DNA of 64,000 bases from NCBI GenBank assembly GCA_018001935.1, contig JAGNHB010000017.1:784-64783 (forward strand), given 5' to 3'. Shown here piece after piece: positions 11,885 through 62,329 of the stretch (position 1 is its first letter; every line of letters begins with the position of its first letter). Source of the DNA: Acidobacteriota bacterium (GTDB taxonomy: Bacteria; Acidobacteriota; JAAYUB01). Position numbers and translations under genes: made by a program. The notes below the pieces were generated by a model that saw only the letters and a program-made list of their open reading frames with translations, ran no database searches and was not told the origin of the DNA.

Positions 11885-11975
11885 TTCGCAAAAAGTCGGA
11901 AAACGGACGAAAAAGTGTCTGTAAAGCCTTTGTTTGAGCCATCACCCGGAGGGTGAGGGTACTTTTTGCGACCGT
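11885..11975. repeat. IR-R: inverted partner of 7744..7838; on plus strand reads as hairpin + TACTTTTT intrinsic-terminator-like end
   Basis: Near-identical reverse complement of IR-L. The hairpin ccatcacccggagggtgagggtacttttt lies 180 bp upstream of the FAAL gene start. Confidence 0.8.
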
Positions 11976-12156
11976 GTCAGGCTTGCCCGTCCCGGCCTCG
12001 ACACTCTCGGCACCGCTCTGGAAGGCGTCGCCACGGCGGCCGACCCTCGAGGAGGACAAACATGCGGGAAGTGTGTTTTCTCGTCTCCGACGACGCCGAC
12101 CGGGGGACCGGCCGGCTGAAGGCCGTCAGGACGGGGTGCGGCGGGGGGCGACGTTC

Positions 12157-22290: not shown

Positions 22291-22640
22291 TTTCCCCCGC
22301 GCGCCGCCGGGGGTGAAGCGTGCTCCGAAGCACCCTTCCGGCCGGCGGCGCGCGGGGGAGGAGAATCATTATAACTACCTTTTCTACAAACATTTCACCC
22401 CTGACGGGGTGAGGACGCAGAGGGCATGATCCCGGCGGGGTGGAGACGCGGCAGGCACGCCCCACACGGGATGAGGACGCAGAGGGCATGATCCCGGCGG
22501 GGTGGAGACGCGGCAGGCACGCCCCACACGGGATGAGGACGCGGCAGGCACGATCCCGGTGGGTCGGGACGCGGCGGGCACGACCAATGCGCGGTGAAGA
22601 CACGAAAGGCCACGATCCGCACGGAACAAAGGGGTGGCGA
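22291..22640. repeat. Composite repeat copy B: GC palindrome + 31-bp TIR-like block ttctacaaacatttcacccctgacggggtga + ~7 degenerate 30-31-bp tandem units
   Basis: Contains tttcccccgcgcgccgccgg...ccggcggcgcgcggggg. The TIR is followed by contiguous units of consensus GGGTGAGGACGCGGCAGGCACGATCCCGGCG with no spacers. Confidence 0.7.
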
Positions 22641-24205: not shown

Positions 24206-25594
24206 ATGAAGAAGACCGCGAGCCTCTCCGCCCTTGCCCTCCTCGCCACCTTCACCCTCCGGGCCGGCGAGTTCCGCCTGCCCCCCCCGGAGGTCTTCAC
24301 CCTCGACAACGGGATGACCGTGCTCTACCGCCTCGACCGGACCGCCCCCCTGGTCAGCTTCCAGGCCATCCTCGGCGGCGCGGGGACGGCGGACGAGCCC
24401 CAGGGGAAGGAGGGCGTCGCCGGCCTGACCGCGGACCTGCTGCTCAAGGGGTGCGGCGGGAAGAGCGCCCAGGCCGTGGCGGAGGCCATCGACTTCATGG
24501 GGGCGTCCCTCACGATGAGCTCCGACGCCGAAAGTGCCCAGATGAGCGGCCTGTGCCTCCGGGAACACTTCCCCGTCCTGCTCGACCTCGCGTCCGCCGC
24601 CCTGACCACCCCCGATCTCCCCGCCGACGAGTTCGAGCGGGAGCGGGCCCGGCGCCGGGAGTCCTTCAAATCCCTCAAGGACGACGCCCACGCCGCCATC
24701 CGGCCCTACTTCATGAAGGCCTACTTCGCCGGGCACCCCCTCGGCCGCCTCGCCCTGGGCACCGAGGCCTCTCTCGGCGCGCTCGGGCCCGACGACGTCA
24801 AGGCGTTCTACAAGGCCTGCTACCGGCCCGACCGGATGATTCTCTGCGTGGTGGGCGACATTTCCCCGGACGACCTGAAGGCGGCCCTCGGGAGAACCCT
24901 GGGGACCTGGGCCCGGCCCGCCGCCCCCGCCGGGGCGCCGAGCCTCCCCGAGTTCCCGAAACCGTCCGGACGCCGGCTCCTGCTGGTGGACAAGCCGGAC
25001 CTCAACCAGAGCTTCTTCATCCTGGGCGGGCCCGGCTTCGCCTTCGGCGACCCCGTGGAACCCCGTGCGCAGGTCTTCAACACCCTGTTCGGCGACCGCT
25101 TCACGTCCTGGCTCAACACCGAGCTTCGCATCAAGCGCGGCCTCACCTACGGCGCCGGCAGCGCATTCCAGGGCTGGCGCAACGGCGGTCTCTTCACCAT
25201 CGCCTCCTACACGAAAAACGAGGACCTCGGCACGATGCTGGACATCACCCTCGACCTGATGAAGAAGGCGCGGGAGCAGGGCTTCGCCGCCGCCGACGTG
25301 GAGAGCGCCCGGAACTACATCCGGGGGCAGACCCCCCTGGACCTCGAGACCGCCGGCCAGCAGGCCGACGCCTACGCCCAGCTCCGCTTCTACGGGATCG
25401 GCTGGGATTACTTCGACCGCTTCCTCGCGGAAGTGTCCCGGGTGACGCCGGCCGCCGTCGCCGACGCGGCGAAGCGGCTGGTCCCCTCGGAGGACTTCAC
25501 CCTGGTGGTGCTGGGCAAGGCGGAGGCGGTCCTGCCGATCCTGGAGAAATACGGCAAGTTCGAGGTCCGCAAGATCTCCGACCCGGGCTTCTGA
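24206..25594 (+). CDS. M16 family peptidase, second (likely non-catalytic) subunit
   Basis: Starts 3 nt after the upstream stop. Signal peptide MKKTASLSALALLATF. M16 C-terminal-type domains, no HxxEH. Confidence 0.8.
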   Translation: MKKTASLSALALLATFTLRAGEFRLPPPEVFTLDNGMTVLYRLDRTAPLVSFQAILGGAGTADEPQGKEGVAGLTADLLLKGCGGKSAQAVAEAIDFMGASLTMSSDAESAQMSGLCLREHFPVLLDLASAALTTPDLPADEFERERARRRESFKSLKDDAHAAIRPYFMKAYFAGHPLGRLALGTEASLGALGPDDVKAFYKACYRPDRMILCVVGDISPDDLKAALGRTLGTWARPAAPAGAPSLPEFPKPSGRRLLLVDKPDLNQSFFILGGPGFAFGDPVEPRAQVFNTLFGDRFTSWLNTELRIKRGLTYGAGSAFQGWRNGGLFTIASYTKNEDLGTMLDITLDLMKKAREQGFAAADVESARNYIRGQTPLDLETAGQQADAYAQLRFYGIGWDYFDRFLAEVSRVTPAAVADAAKRLVPSEDFTLVVLGKAEAVLPILEKYGKFEVRKISDPGF

Positions 25595-25596
25595 AA

Positions 25597-25825
25597 GTAC
25601 GCGCCGCCTGCCGGGCGGCGCTTTGTCTTTCCCCTTGGCGCCTTCCGGCAGAAGGCGCCTACCGTACGCGCCGCCTGCCGGGCGGCGCTTTGTCTTTCCC
25701 TGGCGCCTTCCGGCAGAAGGCGCCTACTGTACGCGCCGCCTGCCGGGCGGCGCTTTGTCTTTCCCTGGCGCCTTCCGGCAGAAGGCGCCTACCGTACCCG
25801 CCGCCTGCCGGGCGGCGCACGTTCT
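25597..25825. repeat. Tandem array (3.5 x ~63 bp) of paired GC hairpins (gcgccgcctgccgggcggcgc and ggcgccttccggcagaaggcgcc)
   Basis: Direct near-perfect repeats begin 3 nt after the peptidase stop. Each unit has two perfect palindromes, and the first is followed by TTTGTCTTTCCC. Confidence 0.85.
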
Positions 25826-26069
25826 CCCCCCCGGGGACGGCGATCACCTTCGTGTGCAACCGCTGGACCCGGTCACCGGCGTGCACTTGGAGGAGATCCG
25901 TCTTTTGATATCTTTGGTTTCATGATCTGAAATGATTTCTTTCACACATCTTTTCTATTACAGGGCAAAGGAGAAAGCAAACCCGATAATCGTCTTGGCA
26001 AAACCAATACGCTGAGGGTGCTTCAGCCTACAGCCTAAACCCCTACAGCCTAAACCCCTACAGCCTACT

Positions 26070-29850: not shown

Positions 29851-29928
29851 TTTCCTCCCCATCGAACCCGGGTGGATCGGATTATAACCACGAACCCCGC
29901 GAACCACACGAAAAAATCCGGCTCGCCG

Positions 29929-34395: not shown

Positions 34396-34830
34396 GTGAA
34401 CCCCTTGATCGAGGAGCCCGCCATGACGGCCCTGCAGCTCGTGGCATCCATCGCCAACCTGCTTGCCCTCTTCATGATCCTCTCCTTCCTCCGACGGGAG
34501 CGGCTCAAGGAGAAATACTCGCTGCTGTGGCTCCTGTGCATCGTCGTCGCCGAGGTCCTCATCCTCTCCTATCACTGGATCGACCGCTTCGCCGCGTGGA
34601 TGGGCGTCTTCTACCCGCCGTCCCTGATCTTCTTCCTGGCCATCCTGTTCCTCTTCGTCATGGTGCTCCACCTGACCCTGGTGGTCTCGAAACAGAACAA
34701 GCAGATCCAGATCCTGGCCCAGCAACTCGCGCTCCTGGAGGCGCGGGTGTCGCCCGGGACGCCGCCTTCGATCACGGGGGACCCAAAGGACATAGAGGAC
34801 CTGCGCTCTTCCCGGGACGTCGCCCGGTAA
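34396..34830 (+). CDS. Small membrane protein (DUF2304-like, 2-3 TM)
   Basis: 144-aa ORF with hydrophobic helices and GC3 consistent with coding. The start is uncertain. Confidence 0.4.
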   Translation: MNPLIEEPAMTALQLVASIANLLALFMILSFLRRERLKEKYSLLWLLCIVVAEVLILSYHWIDRFAAWMGVFYPPSLIFFLAILFLFVMVLHLTLVVSKQNKQIQILAQQLALLEARVSPGTPPSITGDPKDIEDLRSSRDVAR

Positions 34831-34851
34831 CCGTGGTCTCGAAAGGCAACC

Positions 34852-35180
34852 GGGATCGTACCCGCCGCGTCATCACCCCGTGTGGGGCGTGCCTGCCGCG
34901 TCCCCACCCCGCCGGGATCGTACCCGCCGCGTCTTCACCCCGTCAGGATCGTACCCGCCGCGCCCTCGCCCCGCCGGGATCGTACCCGCCGCGTCTTCAC
35001 CCCGTCAGGATCGTACCCGCCGCGCCCTCGCCCCGCCGGGATCATGCCCTCTGCGCCTTCACCCCGTTAGGGGTGAAATGTTTGTAGAAAAGGCAGTTAT
35101 AGAGATTGTTTTCCCCCGCGCGCCGCCGGTCCGGGAGGGTGCTCCGGAGCACGGTTTACCCCCGGCGGCGCGCGGGGGAA
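34852..35180. repeat. Composite repeat copy C (inverted relative to copy B): ~6 alternating 31-bp tandem units, TIR caccccgttaggggtgaaatgtttgtagaa, GC palindrome
   Basis: Units of gatcgtacccgccgcgtcttcaccccgtcag alternate with gatcgtacccgccgcgccctcgccccgccgg. The array ends in the TIR and the cccccgcgcgccgccgg hairpin. Confidence 0.7.
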
Positions 35181-49774: not shown

Positions 49775-50253
49775 CCCTGATCCCCGAGGCGATTCCTCGG
49801 AACACCGCAAACCGCACCCTCGATCTGTAGACGTCCTTCGTCGGAGCCGCGACCGTCAGGGAGCGGTAAGCGTTAAATTCCGACCGTTTGCTTCCGGCGC
49901 GGCCCCGATCCGTTTCAAACCCATTGGACGGCGCCCCTGTCCGCGAAGCAATGCCGCCGATGCGGCCGTTCTCGAATTCGGAGGTTTATCTTCACTCGGC
50001 AGAAAGGGTCCCGGGTTCTCCCCGCCGGGCATGGGAAAGACCATACCCCGGCAATTCTCCGGTAAAGATAATGTGCCGGAGTTCAACAGTGTGATATAAT
50101 CAAATTGCCATTTTTCTCTGCCAGACGTGACGGTCGGGACACGAAAAGTTCATCGGCTTCGACGCGCCTTCCGTCGGGAGTTCCTCCCCGGTTCCACCTG
50201 GTTGACGCGGGAAGAAGCATTCATGGCCCTCTCAACGGATGGGGAGGTTGAAC

Positions 50254-53058
50254 ATGACCCAGGAAGAACCTCCGGGAAAAGACGCTGAACGCGCTCCCGG
50301 CCGCTCCGAACAAGTCGACGAGGCCCCCGGGCGACCCTTGGGGCACGGCCCGGGGAGCCTCGGACGACAGATGGACACCCGGGGAATGGACACCACGCCG
50401 GTCACGGGTTTTCACTTCGACGACGCACCGGAGGGCGCACCACCGGGCGCCCCCTCCCCCGAGGCCTCGGCCGCCGCCTTTTCCGCCGAGGCGCCGAACC
50501 CGGTTTTCCCCGAACCGGACCCGGAGTTCCCTCCCCTGCCGAACGTCCGCTACAACGGTTTCCTGGCGGAAGGCGGGATGGGGCGGCTTTTCCGGGCTTT
50601 CCACCTCGGGCTCTCCATGCCGGTGGCGGTCAAGGTATTAAAGCCCGAGGTGGCCTCCCCCGCCATGCTGGAACAGTTCATCGAGGAGGCCCGCATCGCG
50701 GCGAGGATCCGCCACGCTCACGTGGTGCGCGTGCTGGATTGCGGGATCTCCCAGGGGCGGCCTTTCATCGTCATGGAGTATGTCGAGGGGGAGTCGTCCG
50801 CGGACCTGGTGGAGCGGGAGGGCCCGCTTCCGTGGCAACGGGCCGCCCACATCGTCCGCTGCGTGGCCCGGGGGCTGTCGGTGCTTCACCAGGCTCAGAT
50901 CACGCACTGTGACATCAAACCCTCCAACATCCTTCTGGGGAAGGACGGGTCCGTGGTGCTGGCCGACTTCGGCCTCGCCCGCCGGAACCTCGGGGGGGAA
51001 GGCCCCCTCAAGCCGCGGACCCTGCTGGGGACGCTGCAATACATGGCCCCGGAGCAGGTCCGCAACCCGGGACACGCCGATGTCTCCTCCGACCTCTATT
51101 CCCTGGGGGCGAGTTTTTTCCACCTTCTGTCGGGGGACACGCCCTTCACGGGGTCGATCCTGAAAGTCCTCCAGGCCCTGATGACCGACCAGGCCCCCCC
51201 ACGGCTGGAGAGCCTGAAACCGGGTATCCCCCTGGCGCTCTGCGAGCTGACCCACCGGATGATCGACGTCAACCCCTCCCACCGCCCCGCCAGCGCGGCG
51301 GCCGTCGAACAGGAACTGGACCAGGTCCTCGCCCGGTGCGCCGCCCCCCGGGCCGCCCAGCGCTCCGGGGCCGCCCGGGGAGGCCTTCCGCGCCGTGCCG
51401 TCGACTTCGCCTTTCTCGGCTACGGGAGTTCCGCGGACCCTTGCGGGGACGGCATCCCCCGGCTCTACCTGGACGTGGGAAACTCCCTCGGACCGGGGGT
51501 GATCGACCAGCACCACCTGCTGGCGTACATGGGGTCCACCACTTCGCTGCTCCGGCAACATCCCGAGTTTGTCCGAGCCACCCTGAACCCCGGGGCCGTT
51601 CCGCCGGAGGTCTACACGATCCTGGTGCACCAGCAGCCGGACCTGGACTGCGTCTGCGCCGCCTTCCTGGCTGTCGGCCTCCTGTGCGACGGCGAACTGC
51701 CCGAGGGCGCCGAGGTCCTTTCCCACTACACCGACCGGGTGGACGCGGGGTATTCGGGCACGATCCCCGAGAACCCCTTCTCGCTGTACACGGCCTACGT
51801 GTACCTGAGCCACCGGTTGAGCCTCCGTGCGTGGCGTTGCCCTGAAGACGGCTGGTCCCGTCGCCTGGCGGAGGGGCTCGAACTGGTGGGGTACGCCCTT
51901 CGGGAGTCGCTCCGGGCGGGCGTTTCACTCTGGGAGGTGGACGCCTTCGGCTGCCCGGGGCTCTTCAGCGAAGTCGACCGGAAGGAGGTGCGGCGGGACC
52001 GCGACCGCTACGAGCGGAAGCTCGCCGACCCGGAGTGCAGGGCGCGGATGAGCCGACTCGCCCTGCCGGCCCTTTTCGGAAGCTCCCGGGAGATCGACGC
52101 GCTGATGATCCGCCGTGTCCAGGGGGCTTCGGACCCCGACCGGTGCATCTTCTTCAAGGACTGGGCGAGGTCCGACACCCGCCGGACCGAGACGGGGTTC
52201 ACGTTTCTCTCGGTCTACGAGCCCCTCTCCCCGACCCGCGGGCGGGCCATCCTCTCCGTGAAGCCCGAGAGCGGGCTGATCCTCCGGGGGCTCGGGGAGG
52301 CCCTGGACCGCTCCGAATCCGAGTTGCGCCGGAGCCGCGAAGGGCGGGACCCGCGGCTGGACAGCGCTCCCCGCCAGGGGTATTCGAACGCGGATCCCTG
52401 GTACGACGGGAGGGCCCACGTCTACACCATCGTCGACGCCCCGAGGGAAGGCACCGTCCTGTCGGCGGACGAGGTGGAGGCGCGGGTGCTGGAGTTCTCG
52501 GCCCACAGCGCCATCGGCCCCCGGGCCGCCTTACCCGGCCCGGACCAGCCCACCGCCGCCGTCACCGGGGAATCGGTCCGCTGGTACACCTTCCTGGCCC
52601 GGCAGTGGCGTTGGGAAATGGGGGAGCCCCCGGGCGACGCCGTCCCGTCCGTTCTCGTCTGGACCGTCCCGGACGGTGAGGCGTGGGCCCGGGAAAACCT
52701 GGTTCTGCCGCTCAGGGCGAGGCTCCCCGCGGCAGCGGGCCCCGAGGCCGTCCGGCTGTTCGCCGCGTCGGAGCCGCTGGGCGGGCCCTTGTTGGCGGAA
52801 TTGGCGCGCTGGATCGAGAGGTGCCGGGTGTTCCTCCCCGTCCTGGACGCGTCCTTTCTTTCCCGGGAGGACTGCCTGTGGGCCTTCCAGAGCGCCCTGA
52901 CCCGGGACCCGCGCGGCGAGAAGGGGATCGTCCGGCCCCTGTTCGCGGAGGGGACCGACCTTCCCCGGTGGTGTTCGGAGCTTCGCCGGGGGACGGCCAT
53001 CCCCGCCGCGTCCCCGCCGGCGCTGATCGAGGGGATCGTGCAGGCGTTCGGGCGATAG
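50254..53058 (+). CDS. Eukaryotic-like Ser/Thr protein kinase fused to an unknown ~450-aa middle region and a C-terminal TIR-like (flavodoxin-fold) domain
   Basis: The kinase has a GxGxxG-like GGMGRLF, VAVK, HCDIKPSNILL, DFGLAR and APE. The C-terminal 160 aa read SVLVWTVPDGE...RLFAASE...CRVFLPVLDASFLSREDCLWAFQSAL...IVRPLFAEG, which resembles a TIR beta-alpha pattern. RBS GGGGAGG before ATG at 50254. Confidence 0.8.
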   Translation: MTQEEPPGKDAERAPGRSEQVDEAPGRPLGHGPGSLGRQMDTRGMDTTPVTGFHFDDAPEGAPPGAPSPEASAAAFSAEAPNPVFPEPDPEFPPLPNVRYNGFLAEGGMGRLFRAFHLGLSMPVAVKVLKPEVASPAMLEQFIEEARIAARIRHAHVVRVLDCGISQGRPFIVMEYVEGESSADLVEREGPLPWQRAAHIVRCVARGLSVLHQAQITHCDIKPSNILLGKDGSVVLADFGLARRNLGGEGPLKPRTLLGTLQYMAPEQVRNPGHADVSSDLYSLGASFFHLLSGDTPFTGSILKVLQALMTDQAPPRLESLKPGIPLALCELTHRMIDVNPSHRPASAAAVEQELDQVLARCAAPRAAQRSGAARGGLPRRAVDFAFLGYGSSADPCGDGIPRLYLDVGNSLGPGVIDQHHLLAYMGSTTSLLRQHPEFVRATLNPGAVPPEVYTILVHQQPDLDCVCAAFLAVGLLCDGELPEGAEVLSHYTDRVDAGYSGTIPENPFSLYTAYVYLSHRLSLRAWRCPEDGWSRRLAEGLELVGYALRESLRAGVSLWEVDAFGCPGLFSEVDRKEVRRDRDRYERKLADPECRARMSRLALPALFGSSREIDALMIRRVQGASDPDRCIFFKDWARSDTRRTETGFTFLSVYEPLSPTRGRAILSVKPESGLILRGLGEALDRSESELRRSREGRDPRLDSAPRQGYSNADPWYDGRAHVYTIVDAPREGTVLSADEVEARVLEFSAHSAIGPRAALPGPDQPTAAVTGESVRWYTFLARQWRWEMGEPPGDAVPSVLVWTVPDGEAWARENLVLPLRARLPAAAGPEAVRLFAASEPLGGPLLAELARWIERCRVFLPVLDASFLSREDCLWAFQSALTRDPRGEKGIVRPLFAEGTDLPRWCSELRRGTAIPAASPPALIEGIVQAFGR

Positions 53059-53244
53059 GCGCTTTAGCAGCTGCGTTCTTACCAACATGTTGTCGTTTCC
53101 GGTTGCCTTCCCAGGCCACTGTTACCGGGCGAAGTCCCGGAAAAAGCGCAGGCCCTTCGAAGTGAGATCTTTGGCAAAATGAGCAAGATTTGAGATCGTC
53201 GGTGGGCTCCCACCGCTTTCGGAGCAGGGAAACCCGATGAGGGC

Positions 53245-53540
53245 ACGGAGGGAATCCCCACAGCGTCGCCAGGCAGTTCCCAGGGCTGAAATGCCCCGCT
53301 CGTGCCGATCCTGGTCCGGAATCGACGAGAAAAGTCTCTCGCCAAGACGCCAGGATGCAAAGCCTCGCAAAGGGATCCCCCTTTTCCGGTTCCGGCTTTG
53401 CGTCTTGGCGAGAGGTTGAGACCGCCTGTTTTTTATTTTCTGTTTTCTTCGTTCGTGTGGTTCGTGTGGTTCGTGGTTCTTTTCCCTTTCGTGTATTCCG
53501 TGTATTTCGTGGTTCCTTCTCCGGTTTATCCGGCTTGGGC
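53245..53540. repeat. Repeat family E copy 1: ~100-nt structured stem-loop (tctcgccaagacgc...gcgtcttggcgaga), U-tract, then 9-bp iteron-like direct repeats (ttcgtgtgg x3; cgtgtattc x2), directly upstream of gene start 53557
   Basis: A homologous copy lies at 60657..60940 and a partial copy at 55195..55245. Each sits immediately 5' of a + strand gene. Confidence 0.7.
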
Positions 53541-53556: not shown

Positions 53557-54492
53557 GTGAAAGAGCGCTACATTCGCGAGATCCTGTCGGGTTTTCCCTA
53601 CCCGATCACCGCCTACTTCACGAAGCTGGGGACGGACGAGTGCCTGGACCCCGGCCCGCTGCGGCTGAAGTACCTGCTGGCCACGGGGGAGGCGGTGGGG
53701 CGGTTCCTGGGGGTGGTGGTCCTGGCCGAGGTGCGGGACCGTCTGGAGGAGCCGGGGGCGCCGTCGCTGCCGGCGTCCCTGGTGTCGGACTTCGCGAAGC
53801 GGTACCGGTCGCCCTCGTGGGGGAACTGGCTGCACTTCGCCCGGGAGGGGCTCAAGTGGCTGAGCCTGGGCGGAGTGAGCCTGGTGATGCCGGAGCTGAC
53901 GGGGTTTTACTTCGGGAAGTTCCCGGCGGAGAGCGAGGCGGCGGAAGCGCTGGGGAAGATGCTGACGCTGCGGAACGGGCTGAGCCACGAGCGGATCCGG
54001 GCGATGACGGGGCGGGAGTTCCAGGGGCTGTGCGAGGAGGCGGAGCCGCTGCTGGAGGCCGTGCTGACGGCGCTCGCGTTCCTGCCGGACCACGAACTGG
54101 TGTTCGTGAGCCGGATCGAGGTGACGAAGCGGCGGCGGACGCCGGCGTCGTTTTTGCACCGGCTGAGCCGGATCGTGGGGGACTCGTCGGACTTCCGGGG
54201 GGACCGGAAGACGCTGCCGCGGTACCTGGACCCGGGGTGCATCCTGCTGGAGGGGGAGGGGGAACGGCTGCTGAACCTGGACCCGTTCCTGGTGTACGAG
54301 CCGTCGGCGGGGAAGGCGCCGGACGTGTTCTTCTACGACGGGTTCAAGCGGGCGGGGAGCGCGGAGTACGTGGCGTGCAACCACGGGGGGGGCTTCGGGA
54401 GCGCGGCGGCGGAACGGGGCGGCGAACTGTGGGAGGAGGCGGCGTACCTGCTGCGGCTGGTGACGGGCGAAGCGCCCGGCCAGGGGGCGTGA
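53557..54492 (+). CDS. Hypothetical protein (no recognisable domain) boxed in by inverted iteron blocks
   Basis: 312 aa with a GTG start after AGGAGG. Strong GC3 bias. No catalytic motif recognised. Confidence 0.55.
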   Translation: MKERYIREILSGFPYPITAYFTKLGTDECLDPGPLRLKYLLATGEAVGRFLGVVVLAEVRDRLEEPGAPSLPASLVSDFAKRYRSPSWGNWLHFAREGLKWLSLGGVSLVMPELTGFYFGKFPAESEAAEALGKMLTLRNGLSHERIRAMTGREFQGLCEEAEPLLEAVLTALAFLPDHELVFVSRIEVTKRRRTPASFLHRLSRIVGDSSDFRGDRKTLPRYLDPGCILLEGEGERLLNLDPFLVYEPSAGKAPDVFFYDGFKRAGSAEYVACNHGGGFGSAAAERGGELWEEAAYLLRLVTGEAPGQGA

Positions 54493-54600
54493 GGGTGCCG
54501 GGAGGACTCGGATTGAACCACGAAATACACGGAATACACGAAATGAAAAACAGCATCTTCTGCACGGTTTACGCATATTGTTTGGTCTGTCCTGTGAAAT

Positions 54601-55020
54601 ATGGCATATTTCACTCGACAAATCGGGCAAATCAGGAAGCAGATGAATAAAGAGCATTTAATAGAAGCGCTTACGGAATGGAACTTCTGGAAACGGCCGT
54701 TTCCCCCGACCCTGAATCGCCCGGCTTATGAAACGGAATTGACCCGGAAAGCGTCCGCCGGGGAAATCGTGGTCCTCAAGGGAGTCCGTCGGAGTGGAAA
54801 ATCCACCCTCCTGATCAACACGATCAAGTCTCTGCAGGCGGGCGGGACCCCACCCGAGGAGATCCTCTACGTGAACCTCGAGGACCCGCGGTTTTCCGGT
54901 GACCTGCGGCCGGAATTCCTCCAGGAGATCAAGGACACCTTTCTGGAATACCTTGCTCCCCGGCGAAACCCCTGGATCTTTCTCGACGAGATCCAGAATG
55001 TCGCGGGGGTTGAAAAGTGA
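54601..55020 (+). pseudogene. Truncated AAA_14/DUF4143-family ATPase (N-terminal 139 aa only); paralogue of 61058..62329
   Basis: Walker A GVRRSGKST and Walker B IFLDEIQNV are present. It ends at VEK-stop where the full-length paralogue continues for ~280 aa. A 21-bp perfect palindrome gtgaaatatggcatatttcac overlaps the ATG. Confidence 0.6.
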
Positions 55021-55261
55021 CTGGCAAAGGAACACGACCTGGGCGGGGGAGGCGCGGTGGAACTGCTGATCCTGGCTCCGGATCGGGAGGAGGTCATCCC
55101 GGTCAACGGGCGGCAGGTCCGGGTCCGAAACCTCCTGAACTGGCTGTTGGAGGCCCAGGCATGAAGAGCATTGAACAGCCGGAACCTCGGAGCCCTTGGC
55201 GAGGCTTTGCGTCTTCGCGCCTTGGCGAGAGGCTTATAACATCGACCGATCGAGGTGAGCC

Positions 55262-58200
55262 ATGACTGAACCCGAACGCCCGGACGGTCCCGAGTCTTTG
55301 GACGACCTTTTCGGCCCGGTGAAGGAAGCCGCGGCGTTAGGGCGGAAGCCCTTCAAGTTCCTCGACCCCTACGGTCCCGAGGACGCCGACCTGTTCTTCG
55401 GGCGGGACCCGGAGATCCGGGAGGTCTACGCACGCTACTACGGGAGCCGGCTGCTGCTGGTGTACGGGGAGTCGGGGGCGGGGAAGACCTCGCTGCTGCA
55501 GTGCGGGCTGCGGGGGCGGGTGCCGCCGGAGGAGGCGCTGTTCGTGCCCTTCCGCTCGGGGGAGGACCCGCTCGAATCCCTCCGGCGGGAAGTGCTGCGC
55601 CGCGTGGCGTTCCCCGACGGGGCGCCGGAAGACGACCTGGAGCTGCTGCGGGAGGCGGCGTTCCGGAAGCGCAAGACCCTGGCGCTGGTGTTCGACCAGA
55701 TGGAGGAGTGCTTCCTCTTCGCGCCGAAGGCGGCGCGGGAGCGCTTCGCGAAGGCCCTGGCGGCCTGGATGGCGGCGGGGGTGAACGTCAGGGTGGTGCT
55801 GTCCATCCGGGAGGAGTACCTGGCGCGGCTGGGGGAGTGGGAACCGCTGCTGCCCGAGCTGTACCGGAACCGGCTGTGGGTGCGGCGGGTGGACTTCGGG
55901 GACGTGAAGGAGCTGGTGGAGGGCCCGTGCCGGGCGGTGGGGGTGCCGGTGGAGCCGGACCTGACGGCGGCCGTCACGCGCCTCTTCGAGCGGGAGGCGC
56001 GGGGGGTGGACCTGCCCACGTTCCAGGTGCTCATGGACCGGCTGTACGACGAAGCCTCCACGCGCGGCGAGACGCCGGTGGCCCTGAAGGCGGCGGACCT
56101 CGAGCGCGTGGGCGGCCTGGAGGACGTCCTGGCGGCGTTCCTGGAGCGGGCGGCGTCGGAGCTGCCCGACCCGGCGGCGGGGCGGGAGCTGCTCAAGGCC
56201 ATGGTGTCGGCGGAGGGGACGAAGCTCCGGGCCGGGGCGGAGGCGCTGGCAGCGGGGGCCGGCCTGGACCCGGCGGCGGCGGTCCCGCTGCTGGCGTCCC
56301 TCGAAACCGCGCGGGTGGTGCGCCGGCTGCCGGAGGGTGAGGAGTGGGAGCTGCGGCACGACCGCCTGGCGAAGGTGGTGTTCGGCTGGCTGTCGGAGAC
56401 GGAGAAGGACCTGCTGGAAGCGCGGCGGATGGTGGAGGGGCGTCTGAAGGACTACCAGTCCCGGGGCCTGCTGCTGGACACGGCGGCGCTGAAGGCGATC
56501 GTGCCCTTCGAGAAACCCCTCTCGCGGCACCCGGCCACGGCGGAGCTGATCCGGAAGAGCCGTGAGCACCTCGCGGCCCTCTCCCGCCGCCGGAAGCGCC
56601 TCGTCGCCGAGGTCACGGGCATCGCCTTCCTGGTGCTGGCGCTCTTCACCGTCTGGAACGTCCGCGAGCGCCGCGCGGCGGAACGGGAACGCGATCGGGC
56701 GGAGCAGATGGCTGCCGAGGTTCGGGCAAGCGAGGCGAAAACCACACAAGCCTTCGCTCTTTCCCTCTTCCACCGGATGGAAATCGCCTTGGAAAAAGGC
56801 CGGCGAAACGAGGTCATCTCCCTCCTCGTGGGGGCCATACGGCTATCACGCGCCAATGGGCTTTATCTGGACCGGCTCGTGAATCAATTGACGGTTGTCG
56901 GTATCGCCCTGCCCGTTTCTCCACCCCTGCGTCATTCGGACGAGGTTTGGTACGTCGCCTTCAGCCCCGACGGATCAAGAGTGGCTACGGGATCTGCGGA
57001 CAAGACTGGCCTAGTATGGGATGCGCGGACAGGGGTTGCGTTGACGCCTCCGTTACAGCATGGAGGTCCCGTCAGCGGAGTAGCCTTCAGCCCGGATGGA
57101 GCCAGAGTGGCCACGTCTTCATGGGATGGCACTGCGCGGGTATGGGATGCGCGGACAGGAGCGGCCTTGACAGCCCCGCTTCGCCACGAGAAAGCCGTCG
57201 ACCGGTGTATCACCTTCAGCCCGGATGGAACCCGCCTGGCGACCGGTTCCATGGATAATACCGCTAGGGTCTGGTGTTCACAAACGGGGAAAGCGATTAC
57301 CCCTTCGCTGAAACACGGGGGGCTGGTCTTTGCACTTGCATTCAACCGGGACGGCACAAGGCTGGCAACGGCTTCTTTCGACAAGACCTCCCGCGTGTGG
57401 AATGCCCTGACAGGAGAACCGGTTACGGCTCCGCTAAAGCATGATGACGAGGTTGTGGACGTCGCGTTCAGCCCAGATGGAACCAGGGTGGCAACCGCGT
57501 CGCTTGATAAAACAGTCCGGATCTGGGATGCACGGACTGGCGCGGCGGTGACGGCCCCGCTGATGCATGAAAACAAGGTCTGGAAGGTCGTGTTCAGCCC
57601 GAATGGGAAGCAGGTCTTTTCTTTCACCGACACTTCGACGTATATCTGGAATGCCCAAACAGGTGAGTCGATTGAAATTCCCTTCAGAGATCATCAATGG
57701 AGTTGTGTGGCATTCAGCCCTGATTTGACGAGGGTCCTTTCACAGAATCCGAATTGCGCACGCGTGAAGGACATACGAACGGGAGCCACGGTCACGGAAT
57801 TCATGCAACACAACGCAACCCTCTTGCTGGGGATTTTTAGCCCGGACGGGCAGTGTGCTGCCACGTATTCCAGGGATCAGACGGCTCGCATCTGGGACGC
57901 CCGCGGGAGAGGGGCCCTGCCGATTCCTTTGAATCTTGAGAATCGAGGAACCTGTGCTGCCTTCAGCCCGGACGGGACACGATTGGCGGCGCCAAGCGGA
58001 GATCGTGGGGTAAGGCTTTGGGACACAAAATCCGGAGGGGAGATTCTGCCCTCACTCAGGCCTGAAGGCAAGATAGGTTATATCGGTTTCGACCCGAGAG
58101 GGCTTCGGGTGGCCACCGTGTCCGATGTTGCGGCGCAGCTCTGGGATGCCCGGACAGGGCAACCGCTGTGCGCACCCTTGAGGCTTTCCACCACCATCCG

Positions 58201-59191
58201 CGCGTTTGCCTTCAGCCCGGACTGGGGATGTCTGGCCATGGCCTCCACGGACAGAACCGTCCAAATCTGGGAAACACGAACAGGATCGGCATTGAAAGCC
58301 CCCCTTCGATGCGACGGCGATATCCTGGACCTGGCTTTCCACGCGGACGGAACTCGATTGGTCGTGCTGTGTGGGGATCGCACAACCTGGCTTTGGAATT
58401 TCCGGAAAAGGACCTTTGAAAAGGTCACGCTGCGGTGTGGGGAAAAGTGTGACATATACCTGAGTCCTGAGGGGACGAAAATCGCCTCACGATCCGAAAA
58501 TCAAAGTGTAGTGCGGGTCTGGGATGCCCGGACAGGTTTGGCATTGACGCCACCGCTGAAGCACGAGGCTCCAGTCAAGTTCATTACTTTCAGCTTGGAT
58601 GGGACTCTGCTAGCCACTGGATCTTTATGGATAGTGCATCTTTGGGACCTGCGTACCGGCGCGGCAACAGCAAAGCTAATTCATGAAGGAATGGTCGAGG
58701 GAGACGCTTTCGTCCCTGTCATCAACGCAAGCTTCAGCCAAGATGGCACGCGATTGATTACGGAAACAAAAGACCGAGCCGTCCGGATCTGGGATGTCAA
58801 AGCGGGGGCGATGGCCACCGAACCGCTCCAGCATGACGAGCCTGTACACTTTGCTATTTTCAGTCCTGACGGGAAGCGGGTGGCCACGATGTCAGGCGAC
58901 CACACCCTGTTGGTCTGGGACCTCGGGCTCGGGCTTCGGAACCCGCCCGACTGGTTCTTGAGCCTGGCCGAAGGGTTGGCGGGGTTGCGGTTAGACGATT
59001 CGGGCAACTTGATCCCCGTGATCGATTCCTGGGACCGTCTCCAAAAAGCCCGGGCAATCGCTGCGACAGGAGATCCAACAGATCCGTGGATTCACTGGGC
59101 GCGCTGGTTCCTGGCCGACTGCGACACGCGCACTGTCTCCCCTTCCTCCGACGCCACCGCAGCGCAATACCGCGCCCTCCACCCCCGGTGA
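55262..59191 (+). CDS. STAND-type P-loop NTPase - helical region - single TM helix - ~14 WD40 repeats (1309 aa)
   Basis: Walker A LVYGESGAGKTSLL and Walker B LALVFDQMEE. A TM helix IAFLVLALFTVWNV at ~aa 455. Repeated motifs VAFSPDG.R.AT.S.D.T.R.WDA.TG from there to the C-terminus. Confidence 0.85.
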   Translation: MTEPERPDGPESLDDLFGPVKEAAALGRKPFKFLDPYGPEDADLFFGRDPEIREVYARYYGSRLLLVYGESGAGKTSLLQCGLRGRVPPEEALFVPFRSGEDPLESLRREVLRRVAFPDGAPEDDLELLREAAFRKRKTLALVFDQMEECFLFAPKAARERFAKALAAWMAAGVNVRVVLSIREEYLARLGEWEPLLPELYRNRLWVRRVDFGDVKELVEGPCRAVGVPVEPDLTAAVTRLFEREARGVDLPTFQVLMDRLYDEASTRGETPVALKAADLERVGGLEDVLAAFLERAASELPDPAAGRELLKAMVSAEGTKLRAGAEALAAGAGLDPAAAVPLLASLETARVVRRLPEGEEWELRHDRLAKVVFGWLSETEKDLLEARRMVEGRLKDYQSRGLLLDTAALKAIVPFEKPLSRHPATAELIRKSREHLAALSRRRKRLVAEVTGIAFLVLALFTVWNVRERRAAERERDRAEQMAAEVRASEAKTTQAFALSLFHRMEIALEKGRRNEVISLLVGAIRLSRANGLYLDRLVNQLTVVGIALPVSPPLRHSDEVWYVAFSPDGSRVATGSADKTGLVWDARTGVALTPPLQHGGPVSGVAFSPDGARVATSSWDGTARVWDARTGAALTAPLRHEKAVDRCITFSPDGTRLATGSMDNTARVWCSQTGKAITPSLKHGGLVFALAFNRDGTRLATASFDKTSRVWNALTGEPVTAPLKHDDEVVDVAFSPDGTRVATASLDKTVRIWDARTGAAVTAPLMHENKVWKVVFSPNGKQVFSFTDTSTYIWNAQTGESIEIPFRDHQWSCVAFSPDLTRVLSQNPNCARVKDIRTGATVTEFMQHNATLLLGIFSPDGQCAATYSRDQTARIWDARGRGALPIPLNLENRGTCAAFSPDGTRLAAPSGDRGVRLWDTKSGGEILPSLRPEGKIGYIGFDPRGLRVATVSDVAAQLWDARTGQPLCAPLRLSTTIRAFAFSPDWGCLAMASTDRTVQIWETRTGSALKAPLRCDGDILDLAFHADGTRLVVLCGDRTTWLWNFRKRTFEKVTLRCGEKCDIYLSPEGTKIASRSENQSVVRVWDARTGLALTPPLKHEAPVKFITFSLDGTLLATGSLWIVHLWDLRTGAATAKLIHEGMVEGDAFVPVINASFSQDGTRLITETKDRAVRIWDVKAGAMATEPLQHDEPVHFAIFSPDGKRVATMSGDHTLLVWDLGLGLRNPPDWFLSLAEGLAGLRLDDSGNLIPVIDSWDRLQKARAIAATGDPTDPWIHWARWFLADCDTRTVSPSSDATAAQYRALHPR

Positions 59192-59733: not shown

Positions 59734-60231
59734 GTGTGGGACGTCCGGTCGGGGTTGACGGTGACCGGGCCGTTGGGCGGGTCCGCGGAAAGTGCCGCGG
59801 ACCCGCACGGGGCGGGAAAGGTGTACGACGAGCTGATGGAGTGGGCCGACGGCCCGGCCGGGCCGAACCTGATGACCGTGGGGTACGACGGGTACGTCAG
59901 GGCCTGGGAGCTCGGGCTCGGCCTGCGCAACCCCCCCGGCTGGGTCCTGGACCTGGCCGAGGCGGTCACGGGGCTGCGGCTGGACGAAACCGCCTATCCG
60001 TTGCAGATGCCGGCCGCCGAGGTGTGGGAGCGGATCCGGCGGGCCCGGGAGGAGGCGGCGCGCGGGGACCCGAAGGACCCCTGGGTCCGCTGGCTGCGCT
60101 GGTTCCTGGCGGACCGCGACACCCGGACCCTCTCGCCCTTCTCGGACGTCACGCCGGCGCAGTACCGCGACCTCCACCCGAACCCGGCGCCGGCCCCGAA
60201 GACCCCTGCCCCGCCGGGTGCCGGGCCCTGA
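59734..60231 (+). pseudogene. Orphan fragment homologous to the last WD repeat + C-terminal ~90 aa of the 55262..59191 protein
   Basis: WELGLGLRNPPGWVLDLAEAVTGLRLDE...DPKDPWVRWLRWFLADRDTRTLSPFSDVTPAQYRDLHP aligns to ...WDLGLGLRNPPDWFLSLAEGLAGLRLDD...DPTDPWIHWARWFLADCDTRTVSPSSDATAAQYRALHPR. There is no start context, and the frame is open upstream into low-GC DNA. Confidence 0.6.
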
Positions 60232-60268: not shown

Positions 60269-60565
60269 TTTCCCCCGCGCGCCGCAGGGTCCTCACCCCG
60301 TCAGGTTAAATGTTGGTATTAAAAGAGGTTATTTTTCATTCCCCCCGCGCGCCGCCGGGGGTTTACCATACTCCGGAGCGCCCTCCCGGCCGGCGGCGCG
60401 CGGGGGAGGAGAATATTTATAACTGCCTTTTCTACAAATATTTCACCCCTGACGGGGTGAAGACGCGGCGGGCACGATCCCGGCGGGTCGAGGGCATGGC
60501 GGGCACGATCCACACGGGGCGAGAACGCGGCGGGCACGATCCCGACAGAGTGGGGACGCGGTGTA
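60269..60565. repeat. Composite repeat copy D: degenerate hairpin+TIR half copy, full GC palindrome, TIR ttctacaaatatttcacccctgacggggtga, ~4 tandem 30-bp units
   Basis: Same architecture as copies B and C. The tandem units are gacgcggcgggcacgatcccggcgggtcgagg and similar. Confidence 0.7.
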
Positions 60566-60656
60566 CACGACCCTGGCGGGGAAGAACGCCTTGCTCCCGC
60601 CACCTTCGGGGTGGGTTTGTTTTTGCGAGGCGTCGTTTCTTCCCCGGGGCGGGGAC

Positions 60657-60940
60657 GGAGGAGGGAATCCCGGCAGCGTCGTCCGGCATGCCCCGGGGCT
60701 AAAATGCCCCACTGGTGCTGATTCGGTTCCGGAATCGACGTATCCGGTCTCTAGCAAAGACGCAAAGCCTCGCAAAGGAATCCCCCTTTTCCGGTTCCGG
60801 CTTTGCGAGGCTTGGCGTCTTTGCGCCTTTGCGAGAGGTAAAGACCGCCTGTTTTTTTTCTGGAGCGTCCGGATGATCCGTGCCCATCCGTGTTCATCCG
60901 TGTTCATCCGTGGTTTCTCTCCGGTTTATCCGGGTTGGGA
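60657..60940. repeat. Repeat family E copy 2 (structured stem-loop + 10-bp direct repeats atccgtgNNc x4) upstream of the full-length AAA_14 ATPase
   Basis: It shares ggagggaatccc...gctaaaatgcccc...ccggaatcgacg...caaagcctcgcaaagg.atccccctttttccggttccggctttgcg...cgagagg...gaccgcctgttttttt...ctccggtttatccgggttggg with copy 1. Confidence 0.7.
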
Positions 60941-61057
60941 CGGCCTTTTCGGTGAGGATGGAATTCTAGCCGGACCTTCGTCGGAGCCAGGAAAAGCGAG
61001 GTCGGCTGCGCATGATAATTCTTGAACTGCACAAATAATCATGTTATTGTGCAGTTC

Positions 61058-62329
61058 ATGATCACTGATGCGATATATCAACACAGAATCGAACGGGACC
61101 GGAATCTCGCCGCTCCCACTGTTCCGAGAGAGTTACTCCGCGGTGCGCGGGCGGAGATGTCCAGTCCGCTGATCAAGGTCATCACGGGTCCGCGACGGGC
61201 CGGCAAGTCGGTTTTTGCGTTTCAACTGCTTGCCGGTCAGAATTTTGCTTACATCAACCTTGACGATGAACGCCTGGTCGGCCAGCGGGATTTCGACGAG
61301 ATCATGAAGGCCCTGGTGACGGTCTACGGCCCCGTCACTTCCCTGCTTTTCGACGAGATCCAGAATTTCCCCAGCTGGGAGTTGGTCGTGAACCGCCTTC
61401 ACCGGCAAGGGTATGCCATCGTCGTCACCGGCTCCAACGCCCACCTTCTCAGCCGCGAACTCGGCACCCATCTCACGGGACGGCATGTGGAATTCCGGAT
61501 TCTGCCGTTCTCTTTCCGGGAGTACTGTCTCGCCCGGGGAGAAACCGCAAGGCAGGGCATGCCCGATCCCGAAGCCGTGATGCTCCATCGCTTCGGCCAA
61601 TACCTCGAAACCGGCGGTTACCCCGAAGTCGTCATCGGGGGGGTACAGGCAAAGAGCTATCTCGCCACCCTTTTCGAAAGCGTCCTTTTCAAGGATGTTG
61701 TTAAGCGGTACCGGGTCAAATACCCGCGGAAACTCCATGAACTGGCTCTCTACCTCACCTCCAATCACTCCAGCGAGTACACGTTCAATGCCATCAGAGG
61801 GGCTCTTGGTTTCCGAAGTGTTCATACCGTGGAGAACTACACCGCCTACCTGGCGGAGTCATACCTCTTCTTTTCGGTGGAGCGTTACTCCCCGAAGCTT
61901 AAGGAGCTGTTCAAGGCTCCCCGAAAAGCGTATTCCATAGACCTCGGCCTGATCGATGCCGTCAAGTTCAAGAGTCTGCCGGACCGGGGCCGACTGCTGG
62001 AAAACCTGGTTGCCCTGGAACTGCTCCGCCGGGGAAACCGCTTCTATTCCTACAAATCCGCCGGCAGCAGGGAGTGCGACTTCGTCGTCCGCGAGGGGAA
62101 CACAACGGCCGAACTGATCCAGGTGGCTTATGAGACCCCTTCGCCCAAGACCTTCAAGCGTGAACTGACTGGCCTGGCCGCCGCGGCGAGGGACCTCTCC
62201 TGCGATCGCCTGACCTGTCTGACCTGGAACGAGACCTGGGAGCGGCGCATCGACCGGTGGAAAGTGAAGGCCCAACCGGTATGGCGGTGGTTGATGGAAA
62301 GCCGCGACACCGGTCCCCCTGAGGCCTGA
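61058..62329 (+). CDS. AAA_14/DUF4143-family ATPase (full length)
   Basis: Walker A ITGPRRAGKSV, Walker B LLFDEIQNF, and a C-terminal DUF4143-like region. Start taken at MITDAIYQ (61058). A 34-bp palindrome gaactgcacaaataatcatgttattgtgcagttc sits immediately upstream. The track start at 61022 lies inside the palindrome. Confidence 0.75.
   Translation: MITDAIYQHRIERDRNLAAPTVPRELLRGARAEMSSPLIKVITGPRRAGKSVFAFQLLAGQNFAYINLDDERLVGQRDFDEIMKALVTVYGPVTSLLFDEIQNFPSWELVVNRLHRQGYAIVVTGSNAHLLSRELGTHLTGRHVEFRILPFSFREYCLARGETARQGMPDPEAVMLHRFGQYLETGGYPEVVIGGVQAKSYLATLFESVLFKDVVKRYRVKYPRKLHELALYLTSNHSSEYTFNAIRGALGFRSVHTVENYTAYLAESYLFFSVERYSPKLKELFKAPRKAYSIDLGLIDAVKFKSLPDRGRLLENLVALELLRRGNRFYSYKSAGSRECDFVVREGNTTAELIQVAYETPSPKTFKRELTGLAAAARDLSCDRLTCLTWNETWERRIDRWKVKAQPVWRWLMESRDTGPPEA

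Follow-up and report, generated by a model that had tools for sequence, protein, structure and literature searches.

Immune receptors of the NLR/STAND kind are viewed as sensors that work inside the cell. The nSTAND1 clade of STAND NTPases was described by Kaur, Iyer, Burroughs & Aravind (2021, PMC8195603). The HEPN superfamily, including its MAE_28990-like branch (PF18737), was surveyed by Anantharaman et al. (2013, PMC3710099). That survey places MAE_28990 in ParB and methylase operons rather than beside STAND genes, and HEPN-STAND-TPR fusions are reported for other HEPN families.

Here we describe a locus that appears to join these two groups, in a window of 64,000 nucleotides (the whole stretch of DNA that was analysed). 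We read it as a split module of two genes, with the effector encoded at 53557-54492 and the switch and sensor at 55262-59191, that together form a membrane-anchored NLR-like (STAND) system; our probability for this reading is about 0.55. The domain identities, the conservation of the helix, the coupling of the genes and their fusion are established here.

The nSTAND1 protein and its predicted membrane helix

The gene at 55262-59191 (forward strand) runs from an ATG to a stop codon and encodes a protein of 1309 amino acids with an nSTAND1-TM-WD40 architecture. Only about 29 residues stand ahead of the NTPase module (aa 30-400, 55349-56461), which comprises a nucleotide-binding domain (NBD), a helical domain and a winged-helix module. 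An earlier note on this DNA had recognized a P-loop NTPase distinct from NACHT and NB-ARC, and both points hold. The Walker A motif GESGAGKT lies at aa 69-76 (55466-55489) and the Walker B motif LALVFDQMEE at aa 140-149 (55679-55708), where D145, Q146, E148 and E149 are invariant among 27 relatives. The classification by HMM comparison that the note had proposed gives a match to nSTAND1 (PF20703) with E=3e-43 and 149.2-151.2 bits against a gathering threshold of 27.1 bits, covering profile positions 1-373 of 379 and aa 30-400. NACHT (PF05729) scores 14.9 bits, below its threshold of 26.7 bits (E=0.024), and NB-ARC is absent from the ten families listed at E<=1 in the Pfam search of aa 1-558. 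Judged by these profiles, the NTPase is a full-length member of nSTAND1 and belongs to neither NACHT nor NB-ARC.

The AlphaFold (AF2) model (pLDDT 87.7) places the NBD at aa 64-207, the helical domain at 212-312 and a winged-helix-like region, built as helix-helix-beta-hairpin-helix, at 326-376. The model thus contains the helical and winged-helix modules whose absence the earlier note had said would speak against its assignment. The features by which Leipe et al. (2004) define STAND proteins, i.e. Walker A and B motifs (the latter of the hhhhD[DE] type), helical and winged-helix domains and C-terminal repeats, are all present. In Foldseek the NTPase matches a plant resistosome as well as Apaf-1, CED-4, Avs4 and Orc1/Cdc6, the latter four with E 1e-9 to 1e-5 over 370-490 alignment columns; on the model, the resemblance to Apaf-1 and CED-4 is structural only.

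A membrane-spanning helix is predicted at aa 447-467 (LVAEVTGIAFLVLALFTVWNV, 56600-56662), with RRRKR just before it, from hydropathy and the AF2 model. This agrees with the single helix near aa 455 noted earlier: the segment is the top hydrophobic window of the protein (Kyte-Doolittle 2.17 over 19 residues, against 1.45 for the second-best window anywhere in it), and the model embeds it in one continuous predicted helix, aa 424-511. The polybasic stretch and the helix after the NTPase are kept in 39 of 40 scorable relatives, regardless of the type of C-terminal repeat. In these 39 proteins the N-terminal flank carries a mean of 6.4 K+R and the C-terminal flank 3.4, the net charges of the flanks are +5.1 and +0.7, and the N-terminal flank is the richer in K+R in 36. 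Across the family this charge bias is that of a signal-anchor, which predicts a positive-inside, single-pass protein of the N-in/C-out type. The WD40 repeats probably lie on the outer side of the cytoplasmic membrane. In the searchable texts on nSTAND1 we found no mention of a conserved membrane helix after the NTPase.

Beyond the helix the protein continues with a helical stalk (aa about 473-560), a WD40 array and a C-terminal tail (aa 1237-1309, 58970-59188). The array, at aa 561-1236 (56942-58969), consists of 16 units of about 42 amino acids each, which revises the earlier count of about 14. Pfam scores the WD40 repeats at 256 bits, nine stretches score individually, and the repeats would serve as the sensor. 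A word-indexed database search with the tail returned a sole match, the neighbouring remnant at 59734-60231 that is described below; more distant homologues of the tail came from a pattern scan of metagenomes. A related WD40 and tail module occupies the same position in Ser/Thr kinases (at loci L025 and L028), in the order kinase, hydrophobic helix, WD40, tail.

A different arrangement would leave the WD40 array in the cytoplasm and make the hydrophobic helix either the effector itself or a mere anchor. Oligomerized helices would then perturb the membrane in the manner of the ZAR1 funnel or of TM-effector defence proteins, with the partner protein acting as a regulator or adaptor. Bacterial STAND and NACHT proteins are known to use transmembrane segments as effectors, WD40 repeats that carry the FSPDG...WD signature typically belong to cytoplasmic STAND proteins of bacteria, and in this protein the C-terminal flank is also Arg-rich and the region after the helix Cys-rich. 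The cysteine content, 0.7% before the helix and 0.8% after it, is uninformative on topology. However, a single helix of 21 residues within the continuous helix of the model could not keep the two large domains that flank it on one side of the membrane, the charge bias seen across the family is of the signal-anchor kind, and in the kinases the same WD40 and tail module follows a hydrophobic helix. The invariant RN-x3-H of the partner also speaks for catalysis. On balance, we consider this arrangement quite unlikely.

A coupled partner gene and its predicted function

The earlier note called for a search for a linked effector, and one was found in the gene at 53557-54492 (forward strand, 311 amino acids). 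An nSTAND1 gene directly follows a homologue of this partner at 11 of 11 genomic loci examined. The two genes abut or overlap at every other locus; only this genome has them split. In other bacteria the partner forms the N-terminal part of fusion proteins that continue as nSTAND1-TM-WD40/TPR. The STAND gene had been called the centrepiece of the island. The phrase is an understatement, because the gene is one half of a two-gene module, and the note had not identified the other half at 53557-54492.

The N-terminal domain of the partner (aa 1-172) is helical; a beta-rich domain (aa 180-281) follows on the C-terminal side, and the protein closes with a terminal helix. The helical domain carries the motif R139-N140-x3-H144, which conforms to the Rx4-6H signature of the HEPN superfamily. 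The motif is invariant in 36 sequences at identities down to 22% and is retained in the fused homologues; the relative at locus L018 is without it. Profile searches are less informative. The 311-aa protein has no Pfam match and no significant match to HEPN profiles; 13 of 36 relatives match HEPN_MAE_28990 weakly (best E 9.4e-6, below Pfam thresholds), while three match Swt1 and three RiboL-PSP. A profile of the partner finds nothing below E=0.6 among PDB sequences, and Foldseek against the PDB returns nothing significant, with weak OB-fold-like matches (uS12, EF-P, SSB) for the beta domain. NCBIfam scans of both proteins gave no informative matches, PADLOC-DB v2 has no match for the partner, and no relatives of the partner were found in the viral contig scan.

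We predict a HEPN-like fold for the helical domain. From motif, coupling and fusions, the partner is the probable linked effector, the killing module that the STAND protein lacks, and a probable RNase; we consider RNase activity likely. One can also picture a helical partner without catalysis that gates the STAND protein as an adaptor or inhibitor; the true effector would then lie elsewhere or be absent. The missing HEPN and Foldseek matches and the relative without the motif are what this would lead one to expect, and catalytically inactive HEPN domains are known as binding modules (PMC3710099). Yet the R, N and H residues do not vary even at 22% identity or in the fusions, and the partner occupies the N-terminal position that is usual for STAND effectors, so we regard a non-catalytic role as unlikely. 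The family, with about 1,500 representative clusters, has no annotation at present; naming it a probable HEPN effector therefore improves the annotation of many genomes.

A kinase gene lies upstream at this locus and in the closest relative (71% identity), and there is also one at locus L006. We considered the upstream kinase/TIR-like protein as the effector and rejected it as a component of the system, as it is missing at all loci other than this one and that of the closest relative.

Remodelling of the locus

In this genome an insertion of 769 nucleotides (54493-55261, forward strand) parts the partner from the STAND gene, as judged from the abutting or overlapping genes elsewhere. Within it are a repeat arm rich in CACGAA (54515-54550), a dead gene of the AAA_14/DUF4143 type (54601-55164) and a fragment of about 45 nucleotides (55198-55243) of a dispersed element. 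The dead gene retains its N-terminal 138 codons, an in-frame stop and about 47 C-terminal codons, and its AAA_14 match covers only profile positions 3-78 of 129 before the reading frame is interrupted. A recent duplication of the intact gene at 61022-62329 was rejected as its source, since the two are only 32% identical. The dispersed element is about 190 nucleotides long, with full copies at 53240-53434 and 60655-60857. The earlier note had reported a leader fragment of this repeat upstream of the STAND gene: the fragment is there, while the role as a leader found no support. An Rfam scan of 48.5-64 kb finds only four tRNAs, and therefore no known RNA element or leader upstream of the gene; a scan for promoters and terminators was not above shuffled expectation.

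The relative at locus L022 keeps an overlapping ATGA start, which encodes MSAPDGP, ahead of the same repeat as in the insertion. The sequence CCGGACGGTCCC (PDGP) recurs at 55280-55291. At L022 a 41-codon reading frame follows the partner and the contig then ends; no nSTAND1 match is obtainable from that stub.

A second change concerns the sensor. The GC3 of the STAND gene has a change point at codon 473, with 0.953 before and 0.641 after, and all sequence past the membrane helix (56681-59188, i.e. stalk, WD40 units and tail) is compositionally foreign. A foreign cassette seems to have taken the place of the entire ectodomain. Downstream, at 59734-60231 (forward strand), lies a paralogous sensor remnant of 165 codons that holds the last WD40 blade and the tail. 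It matches aa 1175-1307 of the STAND protein with 47% amino acid identity (E=9e-43), and its codon usage is host-like (GC3 0.95). The remnant is probably what was left of the former sensor's 3' end after its displacement. Together with the break in composition at the membrane helix, it makes a concrete case of a bacterial NLR-like gene in which the sensor cassette was replaced.

Such changes raise the idea that the locus is a decaying relic in this genome, uncoupled, with a replaced sensor and pseudogene fragments alongside, and perhaps no longer functional. The insertion with its dead AAA_14 gene, the WD40-tail remnant and the mosaic composition could all be read this way. But both reading frames are intact (311 and 1309 amino acids), both genes have a Shine-Dalgarno-like sequence of their own, no family-invariant residue is missing, and nine stretches still score individually as WD40. 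Decay therefore seems very unlikely to us, and the reading that we prefer is a two-gene operon remodelled by an insertion that uncoupled its genes and by what looks like a swap of the whole ectodomain.

Proposed mechanism and comparison with known systems

In the mechanism that we propose, the HEPN-like partner would be cytoplasmic and act as the effector, most probably as an RNase through its invariant R-N-x3-H motif. The nSTAND1 ATPase module would also be cytoplasmic, followed by the single transmembrane helix; the helical stalk, the 16-blade WD40 array and the tail would lie beyond the cytoplasmic membrane, on its outer side. A ligand on the WD40 ectodomain may cause clustering and nucleotide-dependent oligomerization of the nSTAND1 modules, which would bring the bound partners together. 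HEPN nucleases generally require dimerization for an active site, and oligomerization could thus activate them. Cleavage of RNA would then stop growth or kill the cell, in the manner of immunity of the abortive-infection type or of another response to conflict between organisms.

Many of the relatives' neighbourhoods consist of housekeeping genes, EAD, caspase, GAP1 and TCAD conflict genes adjoin several loci, and the relatives are spread patchily over many phyla with shuffled domains and sensors. For the pair, a role in immunity has about even odds in our view. As a transmembrane signalling device akin to receptor Ser/Thr kinases, the same architecture could instead tune RNA turnover or dormancy to cues from the envelope, other cells or the environment. 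It shares a sensor module with receptor-type kinases, there are kinase genes upstream here, in the closest relative and at L006, and the housekeeping neighbours and the absence of PADLOC matches would fit as well. Against it stand the patchy spread and the shuffling, the adjoining conflict genes and the fact that HEPN-STAND combinations are otherwise tied to conflict systems (PMC3710099 and PMC8195603). We think a non-immune role unlikely.

If the switch is inside and the repeat sensor outside, STAND signalling would be extended to surveillance at the surface, e.g. of neighbouring cells, damage to the envelope or adsorbing phages. The pair would also be a tractable two-component model, sensor-switch on one polypeptide and RNase on another, for STAND-driven activation of an effector in trans. 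More tentatively, and with the odds somewhat against it, there may be a widespread group of bacterial NLR-like receptors that act across the membrane. Their WD40, TPR or FGE ectodomains would be exchanged with those of receptor Ser/Thr kinases, as cassettes cut at the transmembrane boundary; they would sense periplasmic or extracellular ligands and switch a cytoplasmic nSTAND1 oligomer onto an unrecognized HEPN-family RNase.

Compared with the nSTAND1 clade as described, the NTPase is likewise full-length and high-scoring, relatives carry C-terminal superstructure-forming repeats or FGE domains, and some of their loci adjoin EAD and caspase genes. Published descriptions stress EADs or effectors at the N-terminus (TIR, caspase, kinase and others), whereas the predicted effector here is a separate, unannotated HEPN-like gene. 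Avs and other bacterial NLR-like proteins (Avs4, PDB 8dgf; bNACHT) share the effector-NOD-sensor logic and a similar NBD-helical-winged-helix fold, and fused relatives of our protein have the effector at the N-terminus. They differ in that this NTPase belongs to another clade, WD40 repeats beyond a membrane helix take the place of a TPR sensor, and the effector is encoded separately. PADLOC-DB v2 gives no Avs or NACHT match for the STAND protein, only HEAT-ARM_XIII in the WD40 region and a marginal mad8.

The Apaf-1/CED-4 apoptosome has a similar NOD structure and a STAND ATPase followed by a WD40 array of double-propeller size (15 blades in Apaf-1, 16 units here). However, the STAND clade is different, and Apaf-1 is soluble with a CARD adaptor whereas here there are a membrane anchor and a HEPN-like partner. 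With the MAE_28990-like HEPN branch the partner shares the Rx4H motif with N after R and, by prediction, an all-alpha bundle, but it falls below Pfam thresholds and carries an extra C-terminal beta-rich domain. PknB-like receptor-type Ser/Thr kinases also combine a catalytic domain, one hydrophobic helix and a repeat array, and the WD40 and tail are homologous in the two examples above, whereas the cytoplasmic output here is a STAND ATPase and a HEPN-like protein in place of a kinase. If true, a family of transmembrane nSTAND1 receptors would be, in prokaryotes, an NLR crossed with a Toll-like or receptor-kinase sensor.

A predicted membrane-spanning nSTAND1 protein

The open reading frame at 55262-59191 (+) runs from ATG to stop and encodes 1309 amino acids, exactly as the earlier note described it, with Walker A (GESGAGKT, aa 69-76) and Walker B (LALVFDQMEE, aa 140-149) motifs. 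That note also held the NTPase to be a STAND protein of a clade other than NACHT or NB-ARC, and this is borne out. Residues 30-400 match the Pfam family PF20703, "Novel STAND NTPase 1", at 149-151 bits (cut-off 27.1) over profile positions 1-373 of 379; NACHT stays below threshold in Pfam at 14.9 bits and NB-ARC is not among the families listed. An AlphaFold2 model of aa 1-558 (27 homologues in the alignment, pLDDT 87.7) has an alpha/beta NBD at aa 64-207, a helical domain at aa 212-312 and a helix-helix-beta-hairpin-helix module at aa 326-376. The assignment was to be given up if the STAND helical and winged-helix modules were missing; both are present in the model, therefore it holds. Foldseek matches the modelled NTPase to PAB2304, Orc1/Cdc6, Apaf-1, CED-4, the wheat resistosome and Avs4 (E 1e-9 to 1e-5). 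We are all but certain that the NTPase is nSTAND1; genuine STAND NTPases of this clade with WD40 repeats are a known kind, and the protein is one of them. It has 16 WD40-like units of ~42 aa each (aa 561-1236), where ~14 had been counted. Overall, the earlier observation is confirmed and its interpretation supported with corrections.

Kaur et al. 2021 (PMC8195603) named nSTAND1 as a clade occurring in predicted counter-invader systems, its proteins usually bearing N-terminal effector or adaptor domains. The clade is also found in DGR-diversified sensors (PMC10907252) and is included in a 2026 STAND phylogeny (PMC13581612).

The most hydrophobic 19-residue stretch of the entire protein, aa 447-465 (Kyte-Doolittle 2.17), lies inside LVAEVTGIAFLVLALFTVWNV; RRRKR precedes the segment, and the model encloses it in a single unbroken helix (aa 424-511). 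No second stretch exceeds 1.45 elsewhere in the 1309 residues, and hydropathy finds no N-terminal signal-like segment. Searching with the N-terminal 558 aa gave 45 homologues, none more than 47% identical and each carrying PF20703. A polybasic stretch and then a hydrophobic segment of 19-36 residues (typically ~21), ~380 residues after Walker A, occur in 39 of the 40 that could be scored, regardless of whether the C-terminus is of WD40, TPR, FGE-sulfatase or short type. Judged from these sequences, a predicted membrane helix after the NTPase is a family feature.

The charges flanking the helix obey the positive-inside rule. Across the 39 homologues, K+R within 15 residues average 6.4 on the N-side versus 3.4 on the C-side, net charges are +5.1 versus +0.7, and the N-side is the richer in K+R in 36. 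Given these charges, an NTPase that needs cytoplasmic nucleotide and the lack of a signal peptide, the simplest predicted topology would place the NTPase in the cytoplasm and the repeats outside. That said, the C-flank of the protein under study also holds 6 K/R and its post-helix part 13 cysteines, both of which are caveats for this topology. For TM-bearing bacterial NACHT proteins, sensing of intramembrane or periplasmic signals has been suggested, therefore the idea of trans-membrane sensing is not unprecedented; we found no description of such a layout for nSTAND1 in the literature searched.

The upstream partner gene

A search for a linked effector, called for in the earlier note, yields a candidate at 53557-54492 (+), an ORF of 311 aa with a GTG start and an AGGAGG Shine-Dalgarno sequence. 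The protein has no Pfam match. At two homologous loci, L002 and L003, a gene of 317-347 aa that has no annotation abuts the nSTAND1 gene start; the window partner is 25% identical to the former product (E=2e-18) and 56% to the latter (E=5e-118). A database search recovered 58 relatives of ~310 aa from many phyla, and 1513 of 1.84 billion representatives matched the partner profile at E<=1e-3 (390 at E<=1e-10). The family lacks annotation and counts ~1,500 representative clusters.

An nSTAND1 gene lies directly 3' of the partner, on the same strand, in all 11 reference-genome loci recovered (Competibacteraceae, three Accumulibacter, two Thiothrix, Chromatiaceae, Elusimicrobiota, Desulfobacteraceae, Gemmatimonadaceae and a deltaproteobacterium). 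WD40 forms at greater distance (L015, L016/L017) have this order too, and in L024 the partner precedes an nSTAND1-TM-WD40 protein of 1202 aa that shares 36% identity with the window protein. We have very little doubt about the linkage. Furthermore, 11 full-length representatives (1156-2368 aa) are fusions, with the partner domain at aa 1-~310, nSTAND1 at ~350-775 and then WD40, TPR or HEAT repeats; a hydrophobic helix directly follows nSTAND1 in 10. Fusion and adjacency thus show that the partner, separately encoded in this lineage, fills the N-terminal place in a canonical effector-NOD-sensor architecture.

Three residues, R139, N140 and H144, are invariant in 36 aligned partner sequences down to 22% identity, and 9 of the 11 fusions retain the motif as RNDFHH, RNAFHH or RNDFAH. 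The spacing matches Rx4-6H, the signature of HEPN nucleases (PMC3710099). Weak matches to Pfam HEPN_MAE_28990 occur in 13 of the 36 family members (best E 9.4e-6), with HEPN_Swt1 and RiboL-PSP-HEPN matched in 3 each; the window partner itself matches no HEPN profile in Pfam. From motif and profiles, the partner is probably HEPN-fold and an RNase. Its C-terminal beta-rich domain (aa 180-281, window 54094-54399) gives weak, non-significant Foldseek matches to the OB-fold proteins uS12, EF-P and SSB and may be a nucleic-acid-binding or STAND-docking barrel.

A possible variant is seen on two ENA contigs (L018/L019), where a 464-aa distant partner relative (E=2e-16) without the RN-x3-H motif precedes a short, 578-aa nSTAND1-TM form without repeats, and an EAD11 gene is present too. 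The arrangement could represent a degenerate form of the system or an adaptor form.

Rearrangement of the locus

The window is chromosomal. A block with rpoC, rpoB, ribosomal-protein-sized genes, tuf and a tRNA cluster (35.7-49.3 kb) is followed by the region of interest and then ribF. The exact window protein is on record solely on one 5.9-kb Logan contig, and the names of its gene neighbours at NCBI derive from an Acidobacteria MAG (locus tags KA419_08955 and KA419_08970).

Here the partner and STAND genes do not overlap but lie 769 nt apart. The spacer between them is made up of a CACGAA-rich repeat arm, a dead AAA_14/DUF4143 gene and 45 nt (55198-55243) of a ~190-nt dispersed element. The dead gene is internally deleted (138 N-terminal codons, an in-frame stop, ~47 C-terminal codons) and just 32% identical to its intact paralogue downstream. 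Both copies look foreign to this genome because their GC3 is low (intact 0.72, dead 0.69). In the closest relative, L022/L023 (partner 82% and upstream kinase 71% identical), an ATGA-overlapping start survives as a relic of the ancestral arrangement (L022 4600-4742); it encodes M-S-A-P-D-G-P and is followed by the same repeat as in the spacer. A 12-mer encoding PDGP recurs at 55280-55291, the 5' end of the present STAND gene. These sequences are consistent with an insertion that hit the STAND gene at its 5' end, the duplicated 12-mer being a possible target-site duplication.

The CACGAA-rich 36-nt inverted repeats (53480-53515 and 54515-54550, 94% complementary) bracket the partner gene almost exactly. 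Copies related to them lie at 53452-53485 and 29879-29912, and the element may be MITE-like or a dispersed intergenic repeat. The ~190-nt element, "repeat-E" of the earlier note, lies before the partner gene (53240-53434) and before the intact AAA_14 gene (60655-60857), ends in a strong hairpin (z = -4.2, 53320-53440 copy) and a T-run, and has no Rfam match.

Within the STAND gene, GC3 falls from 0.953 to 0.641 at codon 473 (window 56681), six codons past the membrane helix; it is ~0.95 in partner, nSTAND1 module and host genes alike. This drop of 0.31 compares with 0.03-0.16 in WD40 homologues and at most 0.04, i.e. none, in TPR forms. Downstream, 59734-60231 encodes a last WD40 blade and tail, 47% identical to the current C-terminus with a host-like GC3 of 0.95. 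Metagenomic proteins of Pkinase-hydrophobic helix-WD40-tail layout share the tail motif (PDWFLSLAE...RWARWLL.D...R.LSP) at 27-31% identity. Together, the break, the remnant and the kinase-borne tail suggest that a foreign cassette, of the type used by same-layout kinases, replaced the entire post-membrane sensor and that 59734-60231 is the old 3' end left over. No donor was found. The tail is itself a conserved unannotated module after WD40 arrays (metagenome contigs L025, L026 and L028).

Several other features of the window are recorded here. A 939-aa Ser/Thr kinase (50239-53058, +) has its kinase domain at aa 109-358, a long middle part without annotation and, at the C-terminus (aa 816-906), a TIR_2-like match that is weak and below threshold (22.6 bits versus 28). 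It shares synteny and 71% identity with the L022 kinase and is missing from other partner-STAND loci. Tandem arrays of a 31-nt repeat with conserved flanks occupy three or four sites (22398-22602, 34819-35071 and 60446-60552, with flanks also at 8245-8466) and occur in both orientations; one array separates the WD40 remnant from the AAA_14 gene. At 25566-25827 a 65-nt unit that carries a GC-rich hairpin (GCGCCGCCTGCCGGGCGGCGC) and then TTTGTCTTT is present four times in tandem. A 94-nt inverted repeat (7740-7833 and 11886-11979, 94% complementary) encloses ~4 kb with a 1010-aa ORF at 8676-11708 (-).

Proposed activation and role

What is established is the identity of the modules, the conservation of the helix, and that the two genes are coupled or fused. 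We infer the remaining mechanism from STAND/NLR proteins and from dimerisation-activated HEPN nucleases (RNase L/Ire1, Csm6, Cas13). Ligand bound by the repeat ectodomain would cause clustering, upon which the cytoplasmic nSTAND1 modules would swap nucleotide and oligomerise; bound HEPN partners would thereby be gathered and would cleave RNA, leading to arrest or death. We give this composite explanation, a membrane NLR-like sensor with a HEPN-like partner, a probability of roughly 0.55.

A role in immunity is about an even bet, with moderate support for immunity or conflict. In its favour are the conflict genes beside the pair in L008, L013, L018 and L016 (Caspase+EAD1, GAP1-N1+EAD1, TCAD9, EAD11, caspase), the patchy phyletic distribution and the intact AAA_14+DUF4143 ATPase at 61022-62329 (+), a PADLOC match to PDC-S01, a phage-defence candidate (E=2e-106). 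Against it, several neighbourhoods consist of housekeeping genes, PADLOC has no model for the STAND protein or its partner, and a viral contig scan found no viral copies.

In the literature searched we found no description of the conserved post-NOD membrane helix of nSTAND1, of a dedicated HEPN-like partner or fusion, or of an ectodomain module common to nSTAND1 proteins and kinases, though such architectures may be listed in the supplementary tables to Kaur et al. and to the 2026 Nature study. Because the membrane would separate NOD and sensor, the usual autoinhibition through direct sensor-NBD contact would be inapplicable, and activation would have to proceed much as in receptor kinases or TLRs. 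The components are those expected of an NLR-like system; what makes the case useful and somewhat surprising is its trans-membrane layout together with the split effector.
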